A program made the translations under genes and the position numbers. A stretch of DNA of 64,000 nt from a virus, in the IMG/VR virus record IMGVR_UViG_3300050014_000619. The stretch is one strand, 5' to 3'. This document shows, in pieces, positions 12,490 through 22,605 of this stretch (position 1 is its first letter; each line of letters starts with the position of its first letter). Below the pieces are notes generated by a model. The model worked only from the letters and a program-made list of their open reading frames with translations, had not been told where the DNA came from and made no database searches.

Positions 12490-15400
12490 ATGGTTAAACT
12501 AAAAATATTCGAATTATACAACAATGCCGATGGAAATGACGATATGCTTTCTGATATCGGTAATGTTGGCATGGAAGTAAGACAAGGCATGTGGACATTT
12601 ATGCCTGATAGAGTTGGCGATAATAGTCCAGCAATTCAAGAAGACGAAAATTTTAAATCTCCACAGGTAGACCAAGGTGTGTTAAAAAATCACGCATATG
12701 CCAGAGAATTAGCATATACTTTTGCAAGAAAAATTGGCATACAAATAACAAAAGATTTGGGTGGCGGTGGAAATGGACGTGCATTCGAAATTAGTCCAGA
12801 AGTTGTGCTAAAATTAACTACCGATGTCAGTGAAGTAGATGCTGCAATTAAAACGCTTAGAGAAGAACCAAAACATCTTGCTGAGATTTATGGAATTTAT
12901 AAACTCATTGATACTGAGAAAAATGCATCGTTATATGCCATACTTCAAGAGCACATTCAAGAAAAACCATTGGAAAAATTCAGGGAATATAATAAAATAA
13001 TAAATGCTATTATGCCAAGTGGTCTGGGACTTGAAGATTTTTTTGGTTTAATGAGATTACCTAAAAAATTTAATTATAGTGATTTAGCTGAAAAAGCAAA
13101 ATTACTTCTTACAGATACTCCAGAAGCGAACATTAATGAACAAGATAGAAAGGAAGCATATAATTATCTTATTGCATTACTTGATATAAGACAGGAATTA
13201 ATTGATTATGGTATTAAATCAACTGACTATTGGACTATTGCAAATCTTGGATATGATAAAGGTATATTAAAATATTTTGATGTCGGTGGATATGTTGCAC
13301 CAAAACCAGAAATTCCAAAAGATCATGTGGTAACGTTGCCTGAAGATGGTAGCGCAAAATTTAGCACAGATAATGGTATTGGTCAAGATGATGAACCACC
13401 ATATGATAACAATGACACTTCACCCTCAATAGAAAATGATCTCAATGCAAATTTAAATATGCGTGAAGATTTGGAATACAATCACGTTAGTGATGCAACA
13501 CAAGATCAATACGAGCTTGATGAAAGACAATTATCTTCAATGGCTGGAAGCAGTACTGTTGAAGTTAAACAGAAATGCAGATTAGCTGGAAATGGCAATA
13601 CTTCAACCGCTTGCAATCAGGGTGATATAAGAAATCTGAATATCAAGCCATTGCATGAAAGTGCAAGTCTTAATATACCCGAAAATCTCAGTGGATATGA
13701 TTCACTTAAAATAATGAATGGTGATCAGACTGTAGGTGAGGTTGGAATTATGGACAGAGGTGTACATGGTGGAAATCATTATATTGCAATTGACAAAATC
13801 TTTATTAATAAGGAATTTAGGGGTAACGATTATGCAAATGATGCAATGAAATTGATTTTTGCTTATGCTGATAAAAATAATTTAATTGTTACCTTGACAC
13901 CAGATAATATCTGGGGTGCAAGTGTACCAAAGTTAAAAGCATGGTATAAATCACTGGGATTTATTGAAAATAAAGGCAAGAAAAAAGATTTCCAGACTAT
14001 GCAGTTAATGTATAGATTACCAAAAACTCCTACAAATCTCAATGAAGACATTGACCCTAAAACAATTAATACAAACAGAAGGGCAATATATTCCGTAATT
14101 ACTGGCAAAAGAAAATTGGCATTTGGTGAAGTTGATAAGCCATTAGGACAGGCAATTGAGAAAAGAGGTTTTGGTATAATACCAGTGAGAATGACTTCAC
14201 GTCATGGTATGATGAGCATAGTTTATAATAAAGATTCATATGAAAATGCAAGAAAACTTTATGAAATAGCTAAGACGCATGGTGATTATCTTACAGATAA
14301 TACGGCAAGTGAAGCTCGTGAAATAGGTAGATTATTAGAATATAAAGAAGAAAGTATTGCAGAATATATAAAACAGAAATATGGTGACAGAGCATTATCT
14401 ACACATGAAAAATCACCAGAAGACTTCGATGATCTTTCTGAAGATATGGATTTTTGGGATTTGAATGATTTAAATGAAGAGAACTTTCCAGCATTCGAAA
14501 AACAAATCGAAAAAGATGAAATTACTCACGGTCTTGATAAAAAAGTTCTTTATGAACAAGATGATTTTAAAGTATGTGTAGTTAATGGCGATGCTGTCAG
14601 AGGTAATGGTTTTGATGAATGGGTAGATGGTGGTCATCATTATGTAGATGCTGATTTACCGAAAGACGAACAAAAATACGCTAAATTTATTCCAGAGGAT
14701 GAAATTTGGATTGATGACGTATTTTTATCAAAACCAAATGATATGGCAGCAATTATACTTCATGAAAAACTCGAAAGATATTTAATGAAGAATTATGGTA
14801 TTGAATACGAAAATGCACACACAGATTATGCAAATAAAGCAGAAGTTGTCTTCAGAAAATTAGTTAAGGATGGTACTGGCTCACTTATAAGCCAGAAAAT
14901 TTTCGATGCATTTGTAAATAAATTTATACAAGACCATTCCGATAAAAAAGTTCATGAAGGAGTAGCAGATGTAGCTGCAGATAAACAGTTTGGTATACAA
15001 CAACCACATGCGGGTTTTGAAGACAAATTCAACAGGGAAGAAAATGAAGAAGATGTAGTCTTTGCTGGTGATACTGATGGTATGATAATAATAAGAAATC
15101 CCAAATCATGGAAAAACATATATGGCTATGTTAGGGGAATTATTGACCCAGAAGGTAATCTTTATATTCAACAAAAACCCGTAGGCATTCACTTTGAAAT
15201 GCTTGAGGAATTGAATAAATTAGGACTTGTTGACAATGAAGCAGATTGGGATGAAAAATTACCAACGAACTTTCTTACAGTACAACGATATTTAAGGTCG
15301 AATAAAATTTTACTCGGTGAATCAAACTCACCAAGATATCCAGAACCAAGAGACCCAAATTCTATGTTTTGGAGCAAAATTCCACCAGTTGAGGTAGCTA

Positions 15401-16815
15401 TCCCATATTATCAGGCTTTCTTAGATAAGGCTAAAAAGAAAAATCCCAGCATGGATTTTATTAATGAGATAATAAGTACATATAGGAAACAGCATGAGAA
15501 TGATGAAACGTTTGGTGGTAATGATTTTAATGAAAATTTAAAAAATTCTGATAATCATAATGATTTATATGTAGAAAATGTTAACTTTGCAAAAAATGAT
15601 TCGATGAATGAGAATGAAATAATGTCATTAGATGATTTGCCTTTCAAAGATGATGTTGAACGTCAAGGCGGTAAGGTATATAGTGTTGGTGGTGCAGTAA
15701 GGGATAAATTTTTAGGTAAAGAATCTAAGGACTTGGATGTTATTGTTACTGGCATTCCACTTGATAAATTGGAGAGAATCATATCGAGATATGGTGTTGT
15801 TAACTCAGTTGGTAAATCATATGGTGTGTTGAAGTTCAAGCCACGTGGTGCTCCTGAAGACAGTGAAGATATTGATATTGTTATTCCACGTACAGATACC
15901 CCAACAGGCGGTGGTGGATATCAGGATTTTGATATTCAATCAGATCATACCATACCACTTGAAAAAGATTTGGAACGTAGGGACTTTACCATTAATGCAA
16001 TGGCAAGAGATAGAAATGGCGAAATAATTGACCCTTATGGTGGTCAGGAAGACCTGAAGAATAAAATTATTCGTGCAGTTAATCCCGAAGCATTTAGTGA
16101 TGACCCACTGAGAATGTTACGTGCTGTGCAATTTGCATGCCGTTTCGGTTTTACTATTGAGCCACACACAATGAAAATGATCAAAGACAATGTTGCGGAA
16201 ATCAAACGTATTTCTGCTGAAAGATACTTAATTGAATTTGATAAGATCATTAAAAAGGGCAATATAGTAATGGGTGTTGAACTACTTATGGAAACAGGCT
16301 TGTTTTCACAGATATTTAATGCACAGCCAAAAAATGTTACTCCTTTATTTGCCAAAGTTAAGACAATGGCTGAATTTCTTTATTTGCTTATGACTGGTTC
16401 TGTAAATAATCCTGCAGAATTCTATTTGGAACATTTTGCAAGTGATGAAGATGCAAAAAGAAGTAAGAACTACAAAGAGATTCGTGCACTTGAAACAGGA
16501 TTTGAAAGCGGTGAAGCAACAAACTTAATCGAAGCACGTTCAATTGCACATAATATGTATCTTATATTTCCACAAGTGTTGGAAAGCCAGATATTACCAA
16601 ACATAATCAGGGTTGCATCGCAGGAATTACTTCAAGGTAAATATCCTAAGACTGTGAATGAATTGGCGGTTAATGGTAATGATTTAATGGAACTTGGTTT
16701 ACAAGGTAAAGCAGTTGGTGATATGCAAAAATCATTATTATTGAAGATTTATTCAAATAAAGTTATGAATAATAAAGAAGATTTACTATCTTTGGCGGGT
16801 CAAAATGGAAAATAA
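12490..16815 (+). CDS. cca: Multidomain polyprotein: kinase-like, GNAT acetyltransferase, unknown, zincin-like, unknown, C-terminal class II tRNA nucleotidyltransferase (CCA-adding/poly(A) polymerase family)
   Basis: LGGGGNG/VLK/D...N/FDVG; FRGNDYA...WYKSLGF; LHEKLER...AH; VGGAVRD...DLD, RRDFTINAMA, DDPLRMLR, SAER. Confidence 0.85.
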   Translation: MVKLKIFELYNNADGNDDMLSDIGNVGMEVRQGMWTFMPDRVGDNSPAIQEDENFKSPQVDQGVLKNHAYARELAYTFARKIGIQITKDLGGGGNGRAFEISPEVVLKLTTDVSEVDAAIKTLREEPKHLAEIYGIYKLIDTEKNASLYAILQEHIQEKPLEKFREYNKIINAIMPSGLGLEDFFGLMRLPKKFNYSDLAEKAKLLLTDTPEANINEQDRKEAYNYLIALLDIRQELIDYGIKSTDYWTIANLGYDKGILKYFDVGGYVAPKPEIPKDHVVTLPEDGSAKFSTDNGIGQDDEPPYDNNDTSPSIENDLNANLNMREDLEYNHVSDATQDQYELDERQLSSMAGSSTVEVKQKCRLAGNGNTSTACNQGDIRNLNIKPLHESASLNIPENLSGYDSLKIMNGDQTVGEVGIMDRGVHGGNHYIAIDKIFINKEFRGNDYANDAMKLIFAYADKNNLIVTLTPDNIWGASVPKLKAWYKSLGFIENKGKKKDFQTMQLMYRLPKTPTNLNEDIDPKTINTNRRAIYSVITGKRKLAFGEVDKPLGQAIEKRGFGIIPVRMTSRHGMMSIVYNKDSYENARKLYEIAKTHGDYLTDNTASEAREIGRLLEYKEESIAEYIKQKYGDRALSTHEKSPEDFDDLSEDMDFWDLNDLNEENFPAFEKQIEKDEITHGLDKKVLYEQDDFKVCVVNGDAVRGNGFDEWVDGGHHYVDADLPKDEQKYAKFIPEDEIWIDDVFLSKPNDMAAIILHEKLERYLMKNYGIEYENAHTDYANKAEVVFRKLVKDGTGSLISQKIFDAFVNKFIQDHSDKKVHEGVADVAADKQFGIQQPHAGFEDKFNREENEEDVVFAGDTDGMIIIRNPKSWKNIYGYVRGIIDPEGNLYIQQKPVGIHFEMLEELNKLGLVDNEADWDEKLPTNFLTVQRYLRSNKILLGESNSPRYPEPRDPNSMFWSKIPPVEVAIPYYQAFLDKAKKKNPSMDFINEIISTYRKQHENDETFGGNDFNENLKNSDNHNDLYVENVNFAKNDSMNENEIMSLDDLPFKDDVERQGGKVYSVGGAVRDKFLGKESKDLDVIVTGIPLDKLERIISRYGVVNSVGKSYGVLKFKPRGAPEDSEDIDIVIPRTDTPTGGGGYQDFDIQSDHTIPLEKDLERRDFTINAMARDRNGEIIDPYGGQEDLKNKIIRAVNPEAFSDDPLRMLRAVQFACRFGFTIEPHTMKMIKDNVAEIKRISAERYLIEFDKIIKKGNIVMGVELLMETGLFSQIFNAQPKNVTPLFAKVKTMAEFLYLLMTGSVNNPAEFYLEHFASDEDAKRSKNYKEIRALETGFESGEATNLIEARSIAHNMYLIFPQVLESQILPNIIRVASQELLQGKYPKTVNELAVNGNDLMELGLQGKAVGDMQKSLLLKIYSNKVMNNKEDLLSLAGQNGK
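15582..15589 (+). promoter_or_regulatory. Possible internal -7 box upstream of the CCA domain
   Basis: TAACTTTG 14 nt before an in-frame ATG at 15604; -33 element is poor. Confidence 0.4.
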
Positions 16816-17746
16816 TAGAAAAGAAATATTGATTTGTAATGAATGTAATAAAGAATTTAATTCATTAAAAGGATTGAAAAATCATAATAGATACGGATGT
16901 AGTACCAAATTACATTCAAATTATTTTAAATATTGCCCAATATGTAATGAAATAATACATTATGAAAGTAAAACTAAATATGATTATGCAATTAAAAATG
17001 ATTCAAAATGCCATAAATGTGGTAATATTGGTAGAGAAGTGTCTGAAAACACAAAAATTAAAACATCTAAAACATTAAAAGAAAAATATGATAATGGCAC
17101 ACTAATTCCAAACATGATAGGCGCACATTCAAATGAATCAAGAAAAAAACAATCTGCAAAGAGAAAGAATTGTAAGTTAACTGAATCGCATAAATTAAAT
17201 ATTTCGATTGGTTTAAATAAATCTGAAAATTTTAAAATATCCGTACATTCAAAAGAAAGAGGTAATAAAATTTCAAAAAAATTAACAAATAAAAAATTTT
17301 CAAAAGAACATATCATTAAACTTTCTGAATCACATGCAAATGTTGCGAACGAAAATAATCCGTTTTATAATAAAAGTCATACTAATGAAGCTAAGAATAA
17401 AATGAGAATTAGTGCCATTGAAAGAATTAGATTAAATAAGTTTGAAAATAATCAAATAGTGCCGTTTTATAACAAAAGAGGTTGTGAATATTTTAATAAT
17501 CTAATGAAAATCAATAATTGTTTCATACAACACGCTGAAAATGGTGGTGAATTTTATATTAAGAAATTAGGATATTTTGTTGATGGATATGACGAAAAAA
17601 ACAATATTGTTTATGAATGGGATGAAAAACGTCATTTTCAAAAAGGTAAATTAATTGAAAGGGATATTATTAGAGAAAATGAAATTACCAATTTACTAAA
17701 ATGTGCTTTTATTAGAATTAAAGAAAGTGAGGTAAATAATGATTAA
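16805..17746 (+). CDS. Putative homing endonuclease: Zn fingers, NUMOD3 repeats, C-terminal PD-(D/E)xK/Vsr-like nuclease
   Basis: CNEC...H, CPIC, CHKC; HSNESRKKQS, HTNEAKNKMR; YFVDGYD...YEWDE. Confidence 0.78.
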   Translation: MENNRKEILICNECNKEFNSLKGLKNHNRYGCSTKLHSNYFKYCPICNEIIHYESKTKYDYAIKNDSKCHKCGNIGREVSENTKIKTSKTLKEKYDNGTLIPNMIGAHSNESRKKQSAKRKNCKLTESHKLNISIGLNKSENFKISVHSKERGNKISKKLTNKKFSKEHIIKLSESHANVANENNPFYNKSHTNEAKNKMRISAIERIRLNKFENNQIVPFYNKRGCEYFNNLMKINNCFIQHAENGGEFYIKKLGYFVDGYDEKNNIVYEWDEKRHFQKGKLIERDIIRENEITNLLKCAFIRIKESEVNND

Positions 17747-18344
17747 GAAAATTATAGTTGAGGAAATTAAAAAATTTTTCTTAAATGAATTTGCTTATCC
17801 TGAAATGAGACCAGAAGAAAAGAATACTTGGGACATAAATGGAGAAAATGTTGACATTAATTTCTTTGTACATAAATATGATGAATGGAATCATCAGGGT
17901 GGTGAAAATAGTGGTTATAAAGACCCTTCAGAAGCATCAGTGTTAGAATTTATAGAGAATAACTATGAAGATTTTACACATGATGAAAAATTAAAAAAAG
18001 AGTTGCTTTGGGCATTGACAGATCGAGAAGTTTTAAATGAGAATGAATCTAAATATAATAAAGAAAAAGAAGCATTAATGAAATCAAAAAGTATTGATGC
18101 TGAAATGAAAGAAAAGATTCTAAAATATTTTACTGCTGGTTCAACATATAAAGAAGGTGGACATGTACATGGTTTAAGCAAGCCAAAAGAATTAATGGAC
18201 AAAACATCTAAAACAGAAGGTGTTAGTATGGGTGCAGATAAAGACGGATTCTTTGTATATACACATCGTCAAAGGTCTAAGTCATATGAATCACCCGAAA
18301 AAATATCAATAAAAGACATTGAATTTACTGAAAGTACTGGCTAA
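17739..18344 (+). CDS. Hypothetical two-module protein with IIxEEI leader
   Basis: MIKKIIVEEIKKFFLNE leader; internal VLNENE linker. Confidence 0.65.
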   Translation: MIKKIIVEEIKKFFLNEFAYPEMRPEEKNTWDINGENVDINFFVHKYDEWNHQGGENSGYKDPSEASVLEFIENNYEDFTHDEKLKKELLWALTDREVLNENESKYNKEKEALMKSKSIDAEMKEKILKYFTAGSTYKEGGHVHGLSKPKELMDKTSKTEGVSMGADKDGFFVYTHRQRSKSYESPEKISIKDIEFTESTG

Positions 18345-19000
18345 TGAAAAAAGAAAAATTACTTAAAGAACAACAACGCAATAAATTACTCGAAGATTCG
18401 GGCATAAATCTTGTTCAAAATGCAAATTTATTGTCAATTGATATTCAACCAGAATATCAAAATGCATTTAATTTTCAATTGAGTAATTATATACGATTTT
18501 TAAATAGAAATTTTGATACTATGAATTCTCTTACATTTTTATATAATGGTGAGAATACTGTTGGTGGCGTAAGTGAAGGAGAATATAAAATGTGGTTAAT
18601 AGAAAATGGTATTAAAGAATCAATACTTGATTATGCCAGATTTTACGATAAAGGTTATGCATTTTTCAGAAGCTGTATGGATGATGGTCATGATGAAAAA
18701 GAAATTGTTAACTTAGTAAAATATATGATTAAACATGACATTAACGATAGTAGAGACATTGATGAAGAAATGTGGCAAGGTTTTATGACAGAATATGGAT
18801 ATGATTCAAGTGATGTTCGTGATTTTCTTGAACCAGCACAGGATTGCATTAATATACCAGATTTAATGGATTACTTACAAAAATTTTCTGGAAAAATAGT
18901 TATATGTGGCGGTGGAATAAACCAATGCTTTAAAGAAGTAGAAATTGCTTTAAATGCATTGGAAAAAATTTATAATGTTTTAACAAAATTTACTTATTAA
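18344..19000 (+). CDS. Isochorismatase/nicotinamidase-like cysteine hydrolase
   Basis: LLSIDIQ (Asp), DKGYAFF (Lys), ICGGGINQC (Cys) match the family's catalytic triad order. Confidence 0.6.
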   Translation: MKKEKLLKEQQRNKLLEDSGINLVQNANLLSIDIQPEYQNAFNFQLSNYIRFLNRNFDTMNSLTFLYNGENTVGGVSEGEYKMWLIENGIKESILDYARFYDKGYAFFRSCMDDGHDEKEIVNLVKYMIKHDINDSRDIDEEMWQGFMTEYGYDSSDVRDFLEPAQDCINIPDLMDYLQKFSGKIVICGGGINQCFKEVEIALNALEKIYNVLTKFTY

Positions 19001-19049
19001 TTTTATTATTGTATAAGTGTGAGTTACTAAATCCTATAAAGTATTTATT

Positions 19050-19193
19050 ATGAAAAGCAAAGACAAAACAAAAACAGTTACACCAATGGATGTAGCAAGA
19101 TTTGTTGGTGCTGAAAAAGACTATCAAGATGTTTTAAATAAGAATAGGGGTGCTTTGGTTGAAAATTTTTATAGCTTATTGAAAAAATTATGA
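19050..19193 (+). CDS. Small hypothetical protein (47 aa), not in the ORF track
   Basis: MKSKDKTKTVTPMDVARF...SLLKKL*; ATGA overlap with the 19190 gene; GTATTTAT at 19041. Confidence 0.5.
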   Translation: MKSKDKTKTVTPMDVARFVGAEKDYQDVLNKNRGALVENFYSLLKKL

Positions 19194-19573
19194 GTAATAT
19201 TTCTTATAGTGCAGTAGTTCTTGATGAAAGTTCAAGAAACCGATTAATCAGAAGATTCGAGTCATTAATACCCGAAGGCTGGGAAGTTGTTGCACATCAT
19301 GCCACAATAAAGTTGGGCGAACTTGACCCAAATGAAAAATGGATGATTAATGAAGAAATTACATTGAGTGTAAATGATTTTGCAATGGATGATAAGGTTA
19401 TGGCAGTTGGTGTTAGTGGCTCTGAAAGCCACAATGCCAAGCCACATATAACCATTGCTGTAAATCGACAAGCGGGTGGTAAACCAATGATGTCGAATAA
19501 ATTAATTGACTGGAAAAAAATAAGAGTTCCCTTGGTGATAAGAGGAATCGTGACTGAAGTTGAATATAAGTAA
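19190..19573 (+). CDS. 2H phosphoesterase (tRNA-ligase cyclic phosphodiesterase-like)
   Basis: Two HxT motifs, HHATI and PHITI; KPMMSN. Confidence 0.82.
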   Translation: MSNISYSAVVLDESSRNRLIRRFESLIPEGWEVVAHHATIKLGELDPNEKWMINEEITLSVNDFAMDDKVMAVGVSGSESHNAKPHITIAVNRQAGGKPMMSNKLIDWKKIRVPLVIRGIVTEVEYK

Positions 19574-19574
19574 A

Positions 19575-20171
19575 ATGAGTAATGATGAGTATGTTGCAAA
19601 AAAACAGCAAAAAGATTTTGAAGAAGGTAAAAAACCACAAAAATTATTCGCAGATTTAATGCAGAAGAACGGGTTTCGCTGTTATAGCGCAACCAGTTAT
19701 CAAGATAAATATGAACATTGGGATATCCTGACTGTTGAAGACCTTGGAAATGGTACGAAAGTTTTTGAACGTTCGGACATAAAAGGTCTAAAGAACTGTG
19801 TAAAAGAAGGTTTCGAATGGATGGAATTACAAACAATCGATGGAAGAATGGGTTGGTTGTATTCGGAATTTACAGATAATATAATATTTGAAATTGAAGA
19901 TTGCTTTCTTTTCATAAAAAGAGCAGAATTACTTCCAATCATTGTAGCAAATGTAGCAAAGATGGACAAATTGGATGAAGAAGATGGGGAACGTCCACCA
20001 GTAGTTCATGTGATAAAAGACGGTCTTAAATATTATCAGAGGTACTGTAGAATATTGTGGGGTAATACAGATATAACTGTTATGTCACCATTTACGGATT
20101 TTCAGCATTTAATTTATATGAAACTATATAAAGCAGACGGTAAAATAGAAAAATTTAATAGAAAACAATGA
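19575..20171 (+). CDS. PD-(D/E)xK-like nuclease-fold protein
   Basis: QDKYEHWD...DIKG...WMEL...GWLY; probable ATG at 19575. Confidence 0.5.
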   Translation: MSNDEYVAKKQQKDFEEGKKPQKLFADLMQKNGFRCYSATSYQDKYEHWDILTVEDLGNGTKVFERSDIKGLKNCVKEGFEWMELQTIDGRMGWLYSEFTDNIIFEIEDCFLFIKRAELLPIIVANVAKMDKLDEEDGERPPVVHVIKDGLKYYQRYCRILWGNTDITVMSPFTDFQHLIYMKLYKADGKIEKFNRKQ

Positions 20172-20191
20172 AAAGATTGGCAGTATTTGAT
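20168..20191 (+). pseudogene. Orphaned original 5' end (MKRLAVFD) of the HAD gene
   Basis: ATGA-coupled to the upstream stop; peptide matches IKRLSVFD at 21277-21300; ends exactly at the LAGLIDADG stop codon. Confidence 0.75.
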
Positions 20192-21201
20192 TATATGTAC
20201 TTAAAAGAATATCCTTTACAATGTTTTCTATCCCCCCTAGTAACTCTTTGTATACTTTCATATTTTACATTAATTTTATTGGATGCTTCATGTATATTAT
20301 TAAATGTTTTAATATAATTATTTGATATATAATCATACATTTCTATTTTACGTAAATTTGGGGTTCTATCATACGTTCCTATTTTATATTCTTTAAGTGT
20401 TTGGAATAAATTATATTTTCTTGTAAGTCTAAGATTTTCGGAATCTTCGTAAATATTATTTTTTAATATTAAAAGGTCTTTATATGAATTATATTTTAGT
20501 ACTACAAGCCTATTATTATTTGAAGAATATTTGGTGATACTTACTTTAGTGTTTGATAAACCATATAAATTAAAACTTTTCTTTATCTCAGTAATTAAAT
20601 TTTCTGAACCGATAATTGAAAAACATAATGCACCATTCTTTCTCTTTTTTTCTTTATTAATTGATCCATCCCCATCGAAAACACCACGTATGAAGTGCCA
20701 AAAATATTCTTGAGGTATGTCAGGCATTATACAATTAAATGACTTATTTGAGTGAACACCTAATTTATTGAGATCATTAACAATTTCTTTAGATGCTATT
20801 TGTAGAGAATAGCGTGTATATGTTTTATTGGTTCTTTTATCAAAGACATTATATTTGGCTAATTTATGCTCGGATTTAATTTCCCTTTTTAACATATCAA
20901 CTAACTCGATGTCTCTTGAAGTTAAAACTAACTTATATCGGTTATCAACATATCCATCAGATATAATCAAGCCCAATAAATATGCTTTATTTTTAGCATT
21001 AATAATTTTGAAAAATTCGGTATTAATTTTATATCTTCTATTATTACCGTCATGTGATTTATTGTTTATTGTGTATCCATGCTTTTTTAATTGATATTTA
21101 ATGGTTGAATACGAAACATTAATAATTTTTGAAATTTTTGTTATTGTATAATTTTCATTAAAATAATAATGAGCAATTTGATTAATATCATATTTATTCA
21201 T
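20191..21201 (-). mobile_element. LAGLIDADG homing endonuclease (two motifs, N-terminal HTH, C-terminal NUMOD1) inserted into the HAD gene
   Basis: YLLGLIISDG and FIRGVFDGDG; TFNNIHEAS...GYSFKY; likely start MNKYD at 21201. Confidence 0.85.
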
Positions 21202-21208
21202 ATCTTTG
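21177..21208 (+). promoter_or_regulatory. Consensus Bacteroidota-type promoter for the HAD gene, antisense within the endonuclease 5' end
   Basis: TTTG(21177-80)-N20-TATCTTTG(21201-08). Confidence 0.65.
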
Positions 21209-21224
21209 TATTTATAATAAATAC
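21208..21224. promoter_or_regulatory. Palindromic pair of GTATTTAT motifs (bidirectional)
   Basis: GTATTTAT-A-ATAAATAC between the divergent endonuclease and HAD starts. Confidence 0.65.
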
Positions 21225-21249
21225 TTATAATTTCGAATAATATAACCTT

Positions 21250-21846
21250 ATGACTACGGAAAAACACAAAAATACAATTAAACGCCTCAGTGTCTTTGAT
21301 CTGGATGCGACAATTCTTGACACTCCAACACCAGAAGAAGGAAAAAAAATATGGGAAAAATATTACAAAAAGCCATTTTCATATAAGGGTTGGTGGAGTA
21401 AGCCAGAGAGCCTTGATACTGAAGTATTCGATATTAAACCTTTTCCAGCAGTTCTGGCAGAACTTAATAAAGAAAAAGCAACACCTGACACTGCTGTTAT
21501 TATCTTAACATCAAGAGTGGAAAGATTACGTCCACAGGTTGAGAACGTGCTTAAACTCAATAATATTTCCGTAGATGATGTTCTATTGAAAAATAGTAAT
21601 GAAGATAAGGGTGATATTATTTTAAAAATCTCAGTTTATAATCCAGACCTTCGAGAAATCGTAGTGTATGATGACTTTATGGAAAAAAATGAAGCTAAGA
21701 TTCAGGAATATACGAAAATCATCGGTGAATTATCACCAGAGATTCAATATACTTTGTATTATGTTGACAACGGTAGGATTACTTTACTGGAATCCACTAA
21801 TATAATATTGAAAATGATATCAGATGAAATTCGAAAATTAATTTAA
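21250..21846 (+). CDS. HAD-family phosphatase, Swiss-Army-Knife RNA-repair type
   Basis: VFDLDAT...TP, GWW, LTSR, LLK, VYDD motifs. Confidence 0.8.
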   Translation: MTTEKHKNTIKRLSVFDLDATILDTPTPEEGKKIWEKYYKKPFSYKGWWSKPESLDTEVFDIKPFPAVLAELNKEKATPDTAVIILTSRVERLRPQVENVLKLNNISVDDVLLKNSNEDKGDIILKISVYNPDLREIVVYDDFMEKNEAKIQEYTKIIGELSPEIQYTLYYVDNGRITLLESTNIILKMISDEIRKLI

Positions 21847-21870: not shown

Positions 21871-22605
21871 ATGGGACTATGCTCAAATAAGGAAAAATTT
21901 ATTATTGCTGCACAAATAAAGCATAATAGCAAATATGACTATTCCAAAGTAGTATATGTTGGTAACAAAGATAAAATAACAATTATTTGTCCTAAACATG
22001 GTGAATTTTCACAGAGACCAAATGATCATTTAACTGGATATGGCTGTAAGAAATGCCAATACGAAAAAATCTCAAAAGAAAATAAATTTACAAATAATAT
22101 TTTTATTGAAAAGGCAAATAAAAAACATAATAATACATATGATTATTCATTAGTTAAATATAATGGATATGAAAATAAAATTACTATTATTTGTAAAAAG
22201 CATGGTGAGTTTAATCAATCGCCACATGCACATTTGGGTGGCGCAGGATGCCCTAAATGTAAAGAATCTTTTGGTGAGAAAAAAATTGCAGAAATCTTAT
22301 TAAAATATAATATTCAATTTGAAAGAGAGAAAACATTTAAAGATTTAAAATACAGAGCTAACTTATATTATGATTTTTATTTACCAAATCATAAAGTATT
22401 TATTGAATATCATGGAATACAACATTTTGCGCCAGTAAAATTTTTTGGCGGTAAAAATGCGCTTATTGAAACAAGAAAACGTGATATAATTAAATTGAAG
22501 TATGCTATAAATAATAATTATTTGTTAATTTCATTATATAATATTCCAATAAAACATATGGATGAATTATTAACGAAAGCATTAAACTATAAATCAATAA
22601 TATGA
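21871..22605 (+). CDS. Putative homing endonuclease (DUF723-like Zn repeats plus Vsr/PD-(D/E)xK)
   Basis: Two YDYS...ICxKHGEF...HL.G.GC.KC repeats; YDFYLP...IEYHG.QH. Confidence 0.8.
   Translation: MGLCSNKEKFIIAAQIKHNSKYDYSKVVYVGNKDKITIICPKHGEFSQRPNDHLTGYGCKKCQYEKISKENKFTNNIFIEKANKKHNNTYDYSLVKYNGYENKITIICKKHGEFNQSPHAHLGGAGCPKCKESFGEKKIAEILLKYNIQFEREKTFKDLKYRANLYYDFYLPNHKVFIEYHGIQHFAPVKFFGGKNALIETRKRDIIKLKYAINNNYLLISLYNIPIKHMDELLTKALNYKSII

Follow-up and report, generated by a model that had tools for sequence, protein, structure and literature searches.

A 64,000-nt stretch of the virus record IMGVR_UViG_3300050014_000619 (called the window here, always meaning this stretch at its full length) encodes a class II tRNA nucleotidyltransferase (NTase) of the CCA-adding type, a mini 2H phosphoesterase resembling CNPase and the Trl1 CPD, and a HAD phosphatase of the SAK type. 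As an earlier note on this DNA had pointed out, all three lie on one strand (+) within about 6 kb. Their catalytic motifs are intact. We consider it likely that they form one conserved unit for the processing of tRNA 3′ ends in a clade of uncultured jumbo phages. Repeated fusion of the NTase, the 2H, and the HAD into one protein implies that these enzymes almost certainly work together, and judged by such comparisons between loci the view of the trio as one functional module is strongly supported. From the nature of the enzymes we infer that tRNA tails would be their substrate, and the order of their reactions and their biological purpose are proposed below on the same grounds.

The record measures 83.4 kb at a CheckV completeness of about 25% and includes genes for DNA polymerase, helicase, primase, SbcCD-like, and baseplate proteins; the GC content of the window is about 32%. 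Related genomes reach 334 to 357 kb, so that the record is a fragment of a jumbo phage genome, and a megablast search of INPHARED found no near-identical cultured phage.

Conservation and catalytic domains of the trio

Loci of relatives were collected in two ways, i.e., a first set was gathered with the NTase-bearing giant protein, the 2H, or the HAD as query, while a second set comprised 80 loci fetched by alignment to the NTase alone. Collapsing the latter at 90% NTase identity and requiring at least 5 kb of downstream sequence left 57 lineages. The 2H is encoded within 5 kb of the NTase in 51 of them, the HAD in 50, and both in 49, so the genes whose co-occurrence the earlier note had wished to see checked are indeed co-conserved. 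In 26 of the 57 lineages a single open reading frame (ORF) encodes both NTase and 2H, and in 3 it encodes all three enzymes. The triple fusion exists in two domain orders, NTase-2H-HAD and 2H-NTase-HAD. The former is seen with a linker domain after the NTase in a 1510-aa ORF (L016), and the latter in proteins of about 700 aa that have no other domain and retain all catalytic motifs (L095:6283-8433 and L099). Partial fusions, revealed like that of L016 by stop-to-stop analysis of ORFs, comprise NTase-linker-2H alone (L022; 627 aa) or behind a kinase-like domain (L017; 1767 aa) and a GNAT-NTase-Y-2H arrangement (L002), while the trio is found as three small adjacent genes in the order NTase, 2H, HAD in L087 and 2H, NTase, HAD in L107. 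At the other extreme, single ORFs of 1000 to 3100 aa in relatives combine kinase-like, GNAT, X, Y, and NTase domains with the 2H, the HAD, or a second 2H. The common gene order is nudix, two genes of unknown function, the giant ORF with the NTase, optional accessory genes, the 2H, an optional gene in the slot before the HAD, the HAD itself, and three conserved genes.

A search with the 2H profile (HMMER) against 1.84 billion cluster representatives gave 1535 matches, and the best 150 of these give a similar picture from the perspective of the 2H: 82 stand alone at about 125 aa and 68 are longer, with 43 of the 68 carrying this NTase. Five of the best 150 are trifunctional (P0050, P0065, P0081, P0111, and P0151) and one joins 2H and HAD (P0063). 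The remaining partners that could be identified comprise P-loop PNK-like kinases, HAD phosphatases, ADP-ribosyltransferase (ART) domains in two proteins, and a LigT/Acb1-like 2H in one. The most distant relative, L020 (G003:C1:145686-166063), has a 2H that adjoins a kinase-like ORF and has lost the second catalytic histidine (Y-I-S). In the same complete 334-kb genome the NTase is found about 80 kb away from the 2H as a stand-alone frame of 469 aa, and a HAD of this family is absent. NTase relocation, HAD absence, and loss of the 2H histidine thus represent a case of co-degeneration that supports the module.

In the window, the NTase (15607-16812, +) constitutes the C-terminal ca. 400 residues of a 1441-aa multidomain protein (12490-16815, +) that also contains a kinase-like domain, a GNAT-like domain, and domains X and Y of unknown function. 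The CCA-type identity given in the earlier note is supported, but the start that it gave, position 15604, falls within the continuous 1441-aa ORF, so that the NTase is one domain of a larger protein and has no gene to itself. The NTase matches Pfam PolyA_pol (2.2e-20) and PolyA_pol_RNAbd (1.4e-15), and its best and only full-length model is NCBIfam PRK13299 for Bacillus-type CCA tRNA nucleotidyltransferases (model positions 15-389 of 396; 2.6e-51; 174.9 bits against a curated cut-off of 290). The model tRNA_NucTran2_2 scores 18.6 bits against a cut-off of 27, PRK10885 is matched in its NTase half only (2-207 of 409), and the closest sequence in the PDB is the Bacillus CCA-adding enzyme 1miv. 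The catalytic motifs GGxVRD (G28, G29, V31, R32, and D33) and DxD (D42/D44) are invariant in 11 relatives, and RRD (R124, R125, and D126), DDPLR (D165/D166-P-L-R169), and ER (E205 and R206) are invariant or nearly so. An HD domain was found in neither Pfam nor NCBIfam scans of the NTase protein, in agreement with the earlier note; its absence is, however, the normal state of Bacillus-type CCA enzymes.

Sequence does not easily separate class II CCA enzymes from PcnB-type poly(A) polymerases; the matches to NCBIfam CCA models stay under the curated thresholds, and there are matches to PcnB models, too. The enzyme might therefore be a poly(A) polymerase or other tailing enzyme of host or phage transcripts with 2H and HAD unblocking 3′ ends beforehand, yet we judge this very improbable. 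The full-length match to the Bacillus-type model, the closeness of 1miv, and the invariance of motif D (DDPLR) all speak against it, and so does the tRNA gene content of relatives. These hold 10 to 65 tRNA genes plus a tmRNA gene, the CCA is encoded in only about 7 of 115 tRNA genes examined (with ca. 94% lacking it), and a single class II NTase was counted in each of the 5 relatives checked. The combination of CCA-less phage tRNAs and a single NTase per genome gives this enzyme an obvious housekeeping job in the maturation of phage tRNAs.

The 2H enzyme (19190-19573, +; 127 aa) exceeds the 23-bit cut-off of Pfam tRNA_lig_CPD with a score of 29.1 bits. Its first HxT motif (H37-x-T39) is invariant and the second (H86-I-T88) is kept in 13 of 14 sequences, with L020 as the only exception. 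An AlphaFold2 (AF2) model of the protein (pLDDT 88.9) superimposes on the catalytic domain of mouse CNPase (2xmi) over 124 of 127 residues with a Z-score of 13.6 and a root-mean-square deviation of 1.9 Å, while other 2H structures reach at most 7.6, and Foldseek concurs. A search of the PDB with the 2H profile by sequence only found nothing significant. An identity as an Acb1-like anti-CBASS protein was considered but set aside as improbable, given a Z-score of only 7.4 to Acb1 (7t27) and no match of the window 2H to the Acb1 family PF23474. CNPase, as its name says, opens 2′,3′-cyclic phosphates to 2′-phosphates. Ends with 3′-OH and 2′-PO4 are described for the Trl1 CPD in PMC6379707. By fold and clade, the window 2H would thus be a CNPase/Trl1-CPD-type enzyme acting on 2′,3′-cyclic phosphates, and the cyclic-phosphate-opening type proposed for it in the earlier note is borne out at the level of family match and predicted structure. 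Five metagenome proteins (P0007, P0012, P0014, P0020, and P0009) have two 2H domains after the NTase, first a LigT/Acb1-like one (PF13563/PF23474) and then the CNPase-like one. The mini 2H family looks viral from its distribution, with 3 matches among cellular genomes (one genome per species from about 185,000 species), all on contigs of metagenome-assembled genomes (MAGs). One of these contigs, filed under Candidatus Paceibacterota (L109; JBAZIW010000001.1, 362,763 bp), encodes the phage-type 2H. Being exactly as long as the jumbo phage record 3300029288_000055 of IMG/VR, it probably represents a phage genome that was binned with bacteria.

The HAD phosphatase (21250-21846, +; 198 aa, with a rebuilt 5′ end) shows the DxDxT, T/S, K, and DD motifs, with D17, D19, T21, T87/S88, K120, and D142 invariant in 13 sequences. 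The window protein scores 22.2 bits against Pfam HAD_SAK_1, slightly under the cut-off of 25.6, and 12 of 13 relatives match this family at E <0.01 (best 8.5e-8). Its AF2 model (pLDDT 89.5) has the phosphatase domains of Pnkp1 (4xrp; Z 12.5) and T4 Pnkp (5uj0; Z 12.2) as nearest folds, but other HADs follow within 1 to 2 Z units so that this affinity is suggestive only. Model and motifs together suggest a SAK-type HAD that is nearest to Pnkp phosphatases by a small margin, in line with the SAK-type assignment made before. The HAD profile found nothing significant in the PDB by sequence only, and a search for longer fused HAD forms returned 3 proteins only, of about 400 aa and without an annotated extra domain. 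The HAD is extended at its C terminus by a further domain of about 115 aa in L002:5470-5835, L007:10932-11297, and L022:10580-10945; two of these three extensions, though not that of L022, have weak ART-PolyVal (ADP-ribosyltransferase) matches.

An alternative view of the locus is that of a polyvalent host-takeover bundle in which independent counter-defense enzymes (kinase, GNAT, NTase, 2H, HAD, and the ART of relatives) are kept for co-expression or co-delivery, with the 2H and the HAD degrading signaling or toxic nucleotides (2′,3′-cyclic nucleoside monophosphates, cyclic oligonucleotides, or ADP-ribose derivatives) instead of acting on tRNA ends. The variable and shuffled architecture with kinase-like, GNAT, X, and Y domains would fit such a bundle, as would the weak ART-PolyVal and MPTase-PolyVal matches and the second Acb1/LigT-like 2H in several relatives. 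Iyer et al. 2017 moreover observed that polyvalent 2H domains never occur together with RNA ligases and proposed that they act as RNases or in signal degradation (PMC5512222). We nevertheless regard this explanation as unlikely. The trio survives without any accessory domain both as three genes (L087 and L107) and as one three-domain protein (L095 and L099), it has been fused in two orders, and most of the identifiable 2H fusion partners among the best 150 of the 1535 matches are RNA-end enzymes. In its fold, the 2H also resembles CNPase far more than Acb1. The locus is surrounded by replication genes, and packaging domains of the MuF or portal-linked kind were not noticed there.

Ligases, tRNA arrays, and the proposed pathway

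Under the tRNA 3′-end processing that we favor, the 2H would first open a 2′,3′-cyclic phosphate on the truncated 3′ end of a tRNA (or tmRNA), and this step would leave a 2′-phosphate and a free 3′-OH if the enzyme behaves like other members of the CNPase/Trl1-CPD clade. The HAD would then take off the remaining monophosphate, and the NTase would add the missing C, C, and A. The same NTase would also mature the phage's own tRNAs. No ligase would be needed in this pathway because the damage is at the tRNA tail.

It was indeed part of the earlier note that healing proceeds without a ligase and that none is encoded in the window. No Rnl1, Rnl2, or RtcB was found in the whole 83-kb record either, but this absence means little because the record covers only about 25% of the genome and complete relatives do encode such enzymes. 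Among the three complete relatives, G001 has Rnl2 and Rnl1, G003 has Rnl2 and RtcB, and G002 has RtcB only, without a match to Rnl1 or Rnl2; the genomes of both partial relatives encode ligases, too. RtcB joins cyclic-phosphate or 3′-phosphate ends directly and needs no end healing. Since G002 carries the all-in-one NTase-2H-HAD fusion with RtcB as the only ligase found, the 2H and the HAD would there serve the NTase and not a ligase. Ligase-independent healing is thus favored by this genome, while the occurrence of ligases elsewhere in complete relatives weakens the claim as it was originally made.

These ligases could also be the true partners of the 2H and the HAD, which would then prepare 3′ ends for Rnl1 or Rnl2 encoded elsewhere in a T4-like repair of the anticodon loop, with the NTase only maturing tRNAs and the adjacency of the three genes being historical. 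Besides the presence of Rnl2 and/or Rnl1 in complete or near-complete relatives, such a role would fit the fusion of some 2H homologues to AAA_33 kinases, an architecture like that of CNPase and Trl1. No separate PNKP-like P-loop (AAA_33) kinase was detected in the three complete genomes, and the phages may therefore lack another 3′ healing enzyme. The missing kinase cuts both ways, however, since Rnl ligases also require a 5′ kinase. The located ligase genes lie in or beside tRNA arrays (Rnl1 of G001 and G005 inside them, RtcB of G003 adjoining one), and those of G001 are tens of kb or more away from the module. Furthermore, it is the NTase that recurs as fusion partner, and Pfam detected no ligase in 25 long 2H proteins without NTase, the NTase-fused ones not having been scanned for ligases. 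Together with the fusion in G002, whose only ligase found needs no healing, these observations make healing for ligation quite improbable in our view.

The tRNA arrays of two complete relatives also contain tmRNA genes (L023:8756-9121 and L025:6011-6373), and ARAGORN reported tRNAs with a CUA anticodon (“Pyl”-type, amber suppressor-like) at L024:14007-14081 and L026:10486-10563. As a source of cyclic phosphates at tRNA 3′ ends we considered ribozymes of the HDV-like and theta types, but no ribozyme family in Rfam reached its gathering score in 104 kb of tRNA arrays or in the window. Many tRNA genes are only 5 to 10 nt apart, and this was counted against ribozyme processing.

Among the targets of bacterial immunity, tRNAs hold a major place. 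To our knowledge, the known viral answers are spare tRNAs and the ligase-based repair of anticodon loops, neither of which helps against an attack on the universally conserved CCA tail. We therefore raise, more tentatively than the processing function itself and with rather less than even confidence, the possibility that the module is a dedicated viral counter to tRNA-tail immunity, i.e., a self-contained system that heals and rebuilds without a ligase and thereby restores chargeable tRNA. Candidate triggers could be CCA clipping of the Cas12a3 type, tail RNases that leave cyclic phosphates, or the (pyro)phosphorylation of 3′ ends by toxSAS toxins, and delivery may in some phages occur inside the giant multi-enzyme protein. 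Cas12a3 was described in a 2026 paper as arresting infection by cutting the CCA tails of tRNAs, with the means of viral resistance given as unknown (PMC12851939), and the phage module is a candidate viral answer to this kind of cleavage. Should the proposed function hold true, no viral system for healing and rebuilding tRNA tails would have been described before this conserved and repeatedly fused set of CCA-NTase, 2H, and HAD, and the compact fusion of about 700 aa offers it as a single protein that is directly expressible and testable.

Several points weigh against the tRNA 3′-end processing that we favor. The substrate and regiochemistry of the module are deduced from predicted fold and family, and the lead of the HAD's match to Pnkp over generic HADs in fold space is small. 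Cas12a3 cuts with a RuvC site and should leave 3′-OH ends that need no healing, so that the NTase alone would suffice after its cleavage, and among bacterial RNases none that cuts tRNA tails to leave a cyclic phosphate is known to be linked with these phages. An ordinary alternative to the rescue from host toxins that the earlier note envisaged is the maturing of CCA-less tRNAs made by the phage itself, a job to which repair would be an addition. The likeness to polyvalent multi-effector proteins means that fusion may reflect co-delivery and not a shared pathway, and in some relatives a further 2H of the LigT/Acb1-like kind separates the NTase from the CNPase-like 2H. Finally, all loci come from one broad phage clade and the co-occurrence counts are therefore not phylogenetically independent.

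Homing endonucleases and accessory genes at the locus

The cluster in the window is broken up by three homing-endonuclease genes, and four further ORFs lie between the enzymes, yet every catalytic residue of the trio is kept. The first of these endonucleases, with NUMOD3 and zinc-finger matches in Pfam (16805-17746, +), sits at the NTase/linker boundary, precisely where the NTase of fused relatives continues into a linker domain of about 85 aa and then the 2H. It is followed by the gene of a 201-aa protein (17739-18344, +) whose N-terminal part is this linker domain: in tblastn, its residues ~19-133 map between NTase and 2H in the single ORFs of L016, L017, and L022, while residues 154-201 match phrog_3666 (no known function). 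A 218-aa accessory protein (18344-19000, +) is present in some relatives at 71% to 73% identity (L006, L007, and L011) or 100% identity (L012 and L015) and matched no Pfam or PHROG family. Next comes a 47-aa ORF (19050-19193, +) whose stop overlaps the 2H start (ATGA). In L007:8445-10001, and also in L012 and L015, a 519-aa ORF with weak PLD-like and zincin (MPTase-PolyVal) matches lies between the 218-aa gene and the 2H.

A second endonuclease gene, of the LAGLIDADG type (20191-21267, −; Pfam LAGLIDADG_3, phrog_4645 at 1.2e-46), is inserted in HAD motif I and splits the HAD gene at its first catalytic aspartate (20168-21310). The relic HAD 5′ end, MKRLAVFD (20168-20191, +), is ATGA-coupled to the upstream gene and ends where the antisense LAGLIDADG gene ends, while the HAD begins anew at 21250, where IKRLSVFDLDAT is a recoded copy of the relic MKRLAVFD peptide. 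A 60% identical copy of the LAGLIDADG gene is found inside the giant ORF of L008-L011. The third, an HNH-type homing endonuclease-like gene (21871-22605, +; phrog_559 at 1.1e-55), is shared at this site by the window with only some relatives (L002, L012, L013, and L021).

A tract of 2.66 kb (16471-19133) comprising the NTase 3′ end and the genes of the NUMOD3 endonuclease, the 201-aa protein, and the 218-aa protein is 97.7% identical in DNA sequence to L012/L013/L015, in contrast to about 65% to 75% for the NTase and 2H flanks, and this difference points to recent lateral exchange linked to the endonuclease. An origin of the endonuclease genes as introns or inteins found no support, as the ORFs join by ATGA-type overlaps and each piece has its own start. 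The ancestral module was probably a fusion that free-standing homing endonucleases have here split into genes in pieces, and the locus would clearly exemplify how such elements can divide a multidomain gene into parts that still function.

The slot between 2H and HAD is occupied in the window by an accessory protein (19575-20171, +) with a PD-(D/E)xK-like D...E-x-K motif, for which this motif suggests a nuclease fold. In 8 relatives, the slot is filled by two distantly related groups of proteins of about 170 to 200 aa (including L002:4394-4921, L005:10368-10886, L011:10374-10886, L017:9897-10403, L022:9387-9986, L006:3141-3701, and L015:10384-10974). These proteins could be a fourth component of the module or another mobile nuclease.

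The composite giant protein recurs in relatives with its accessory domains shuffled or missing. Its putative protein-kinase-like domain (12631-13347, +) displays an invariant Gly-rich loop with a lysine, a D..N loop, and an FDxG motif in our alignment A3; the ESM Atlas gives only a Pkinase/T7-kinase lead, a profile search of the PDB found nothing significant, and tandem copies of the domain occur in L004, L005, L011, L014, L017, and L022. The weakly matching GNAT-like acetyltransferase domain (13720-13965, +) hits Pfam Acetyltransf_7 at E-values of 7.9e-4 to 0.0099, under the Pfam cut-off, and the same domain is present in L002.

Relation to known systems

A jumbo phage survey lists CCA-adding enzymes, 2H proteins, and SAK-type HADs as separate components of RNA repair, with the SAK HAD usually standing alone (PMC7824862). 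The NTase-2H-HAD fusion was not described anywhere in our full-text literature searches, which left out the RNA-repair survey of Burroughs and Aravind 2016 (PMC5062991). Like the polyvalent proteins of Iyer et al. 2017, the giant phage proteins string together kinase-like, GNAT, ART, and 2H-type domains that are rapidly shuffled (PMC5512222), but no MuF domain was noticed in the phage locus and the trio also occurs alone. The text of that study contains neither “CCA” nor a relevant mention of HADs.

With CNPase and the Trl1 CPD, the phage 2H shares its predicted fold, the tRNA_lig_CPD match, and the fusion to P-loop kinases in some homologues. It differs in its small size of about 125 aa (ca. 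60% of the CNPase catalytic domain), an identity of about 14%, and NTase and HAD as partners instead of a ligase. Similarly, the phage HAD has the DxDxT motifs of T4 Pnkp and Pnkp1 and finds its nearest folds in their structures (4xrp, 5uj0, and 1ltq), yet it is neither fused to a polynucleotide kinase nor placed beside a ligase and is instead tied to a CCA NTase and a 2H. The setting also deviates from PNKP-ligase repair of the T4 type in that the 83-kb record has no ligase, the ligases of relatives are distant, and no AAA_33 kinase was found in the three complete genomes.

The closest functional parallel may lie in cellular CCA enzymes. In CCA enzymes of the E. coli type and in those of mycobacteria, the HD domain strips 2′,3′-cyclic phosphates from tRNA 3′ ends, as stated in PMC10673834 with reference to Yakunin 2004. 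Like E. coli Cca and M. tuberculosis Rv3907c, the phage unit would thus join a class II CCA NTase to the removal of cyclic phosphates and phosphates and would heal and then rebuild without a ligase. Unlike in these enzymes, the healing folds are a 2H and a HAD instead of a single HD domain, the NTase has no HD, and the set may be spread over separate genes, fused into proteins of two or three domains (in two orders), or embedded in giant proteins. We therefore suggest that the phage unit is an analogue of the CCA-HD repair enzyme that is neither homologous to it nor a member of its family; if so, the HD domain of cellular CCA repair would here have been cleanly replaced by non-homologous folds.

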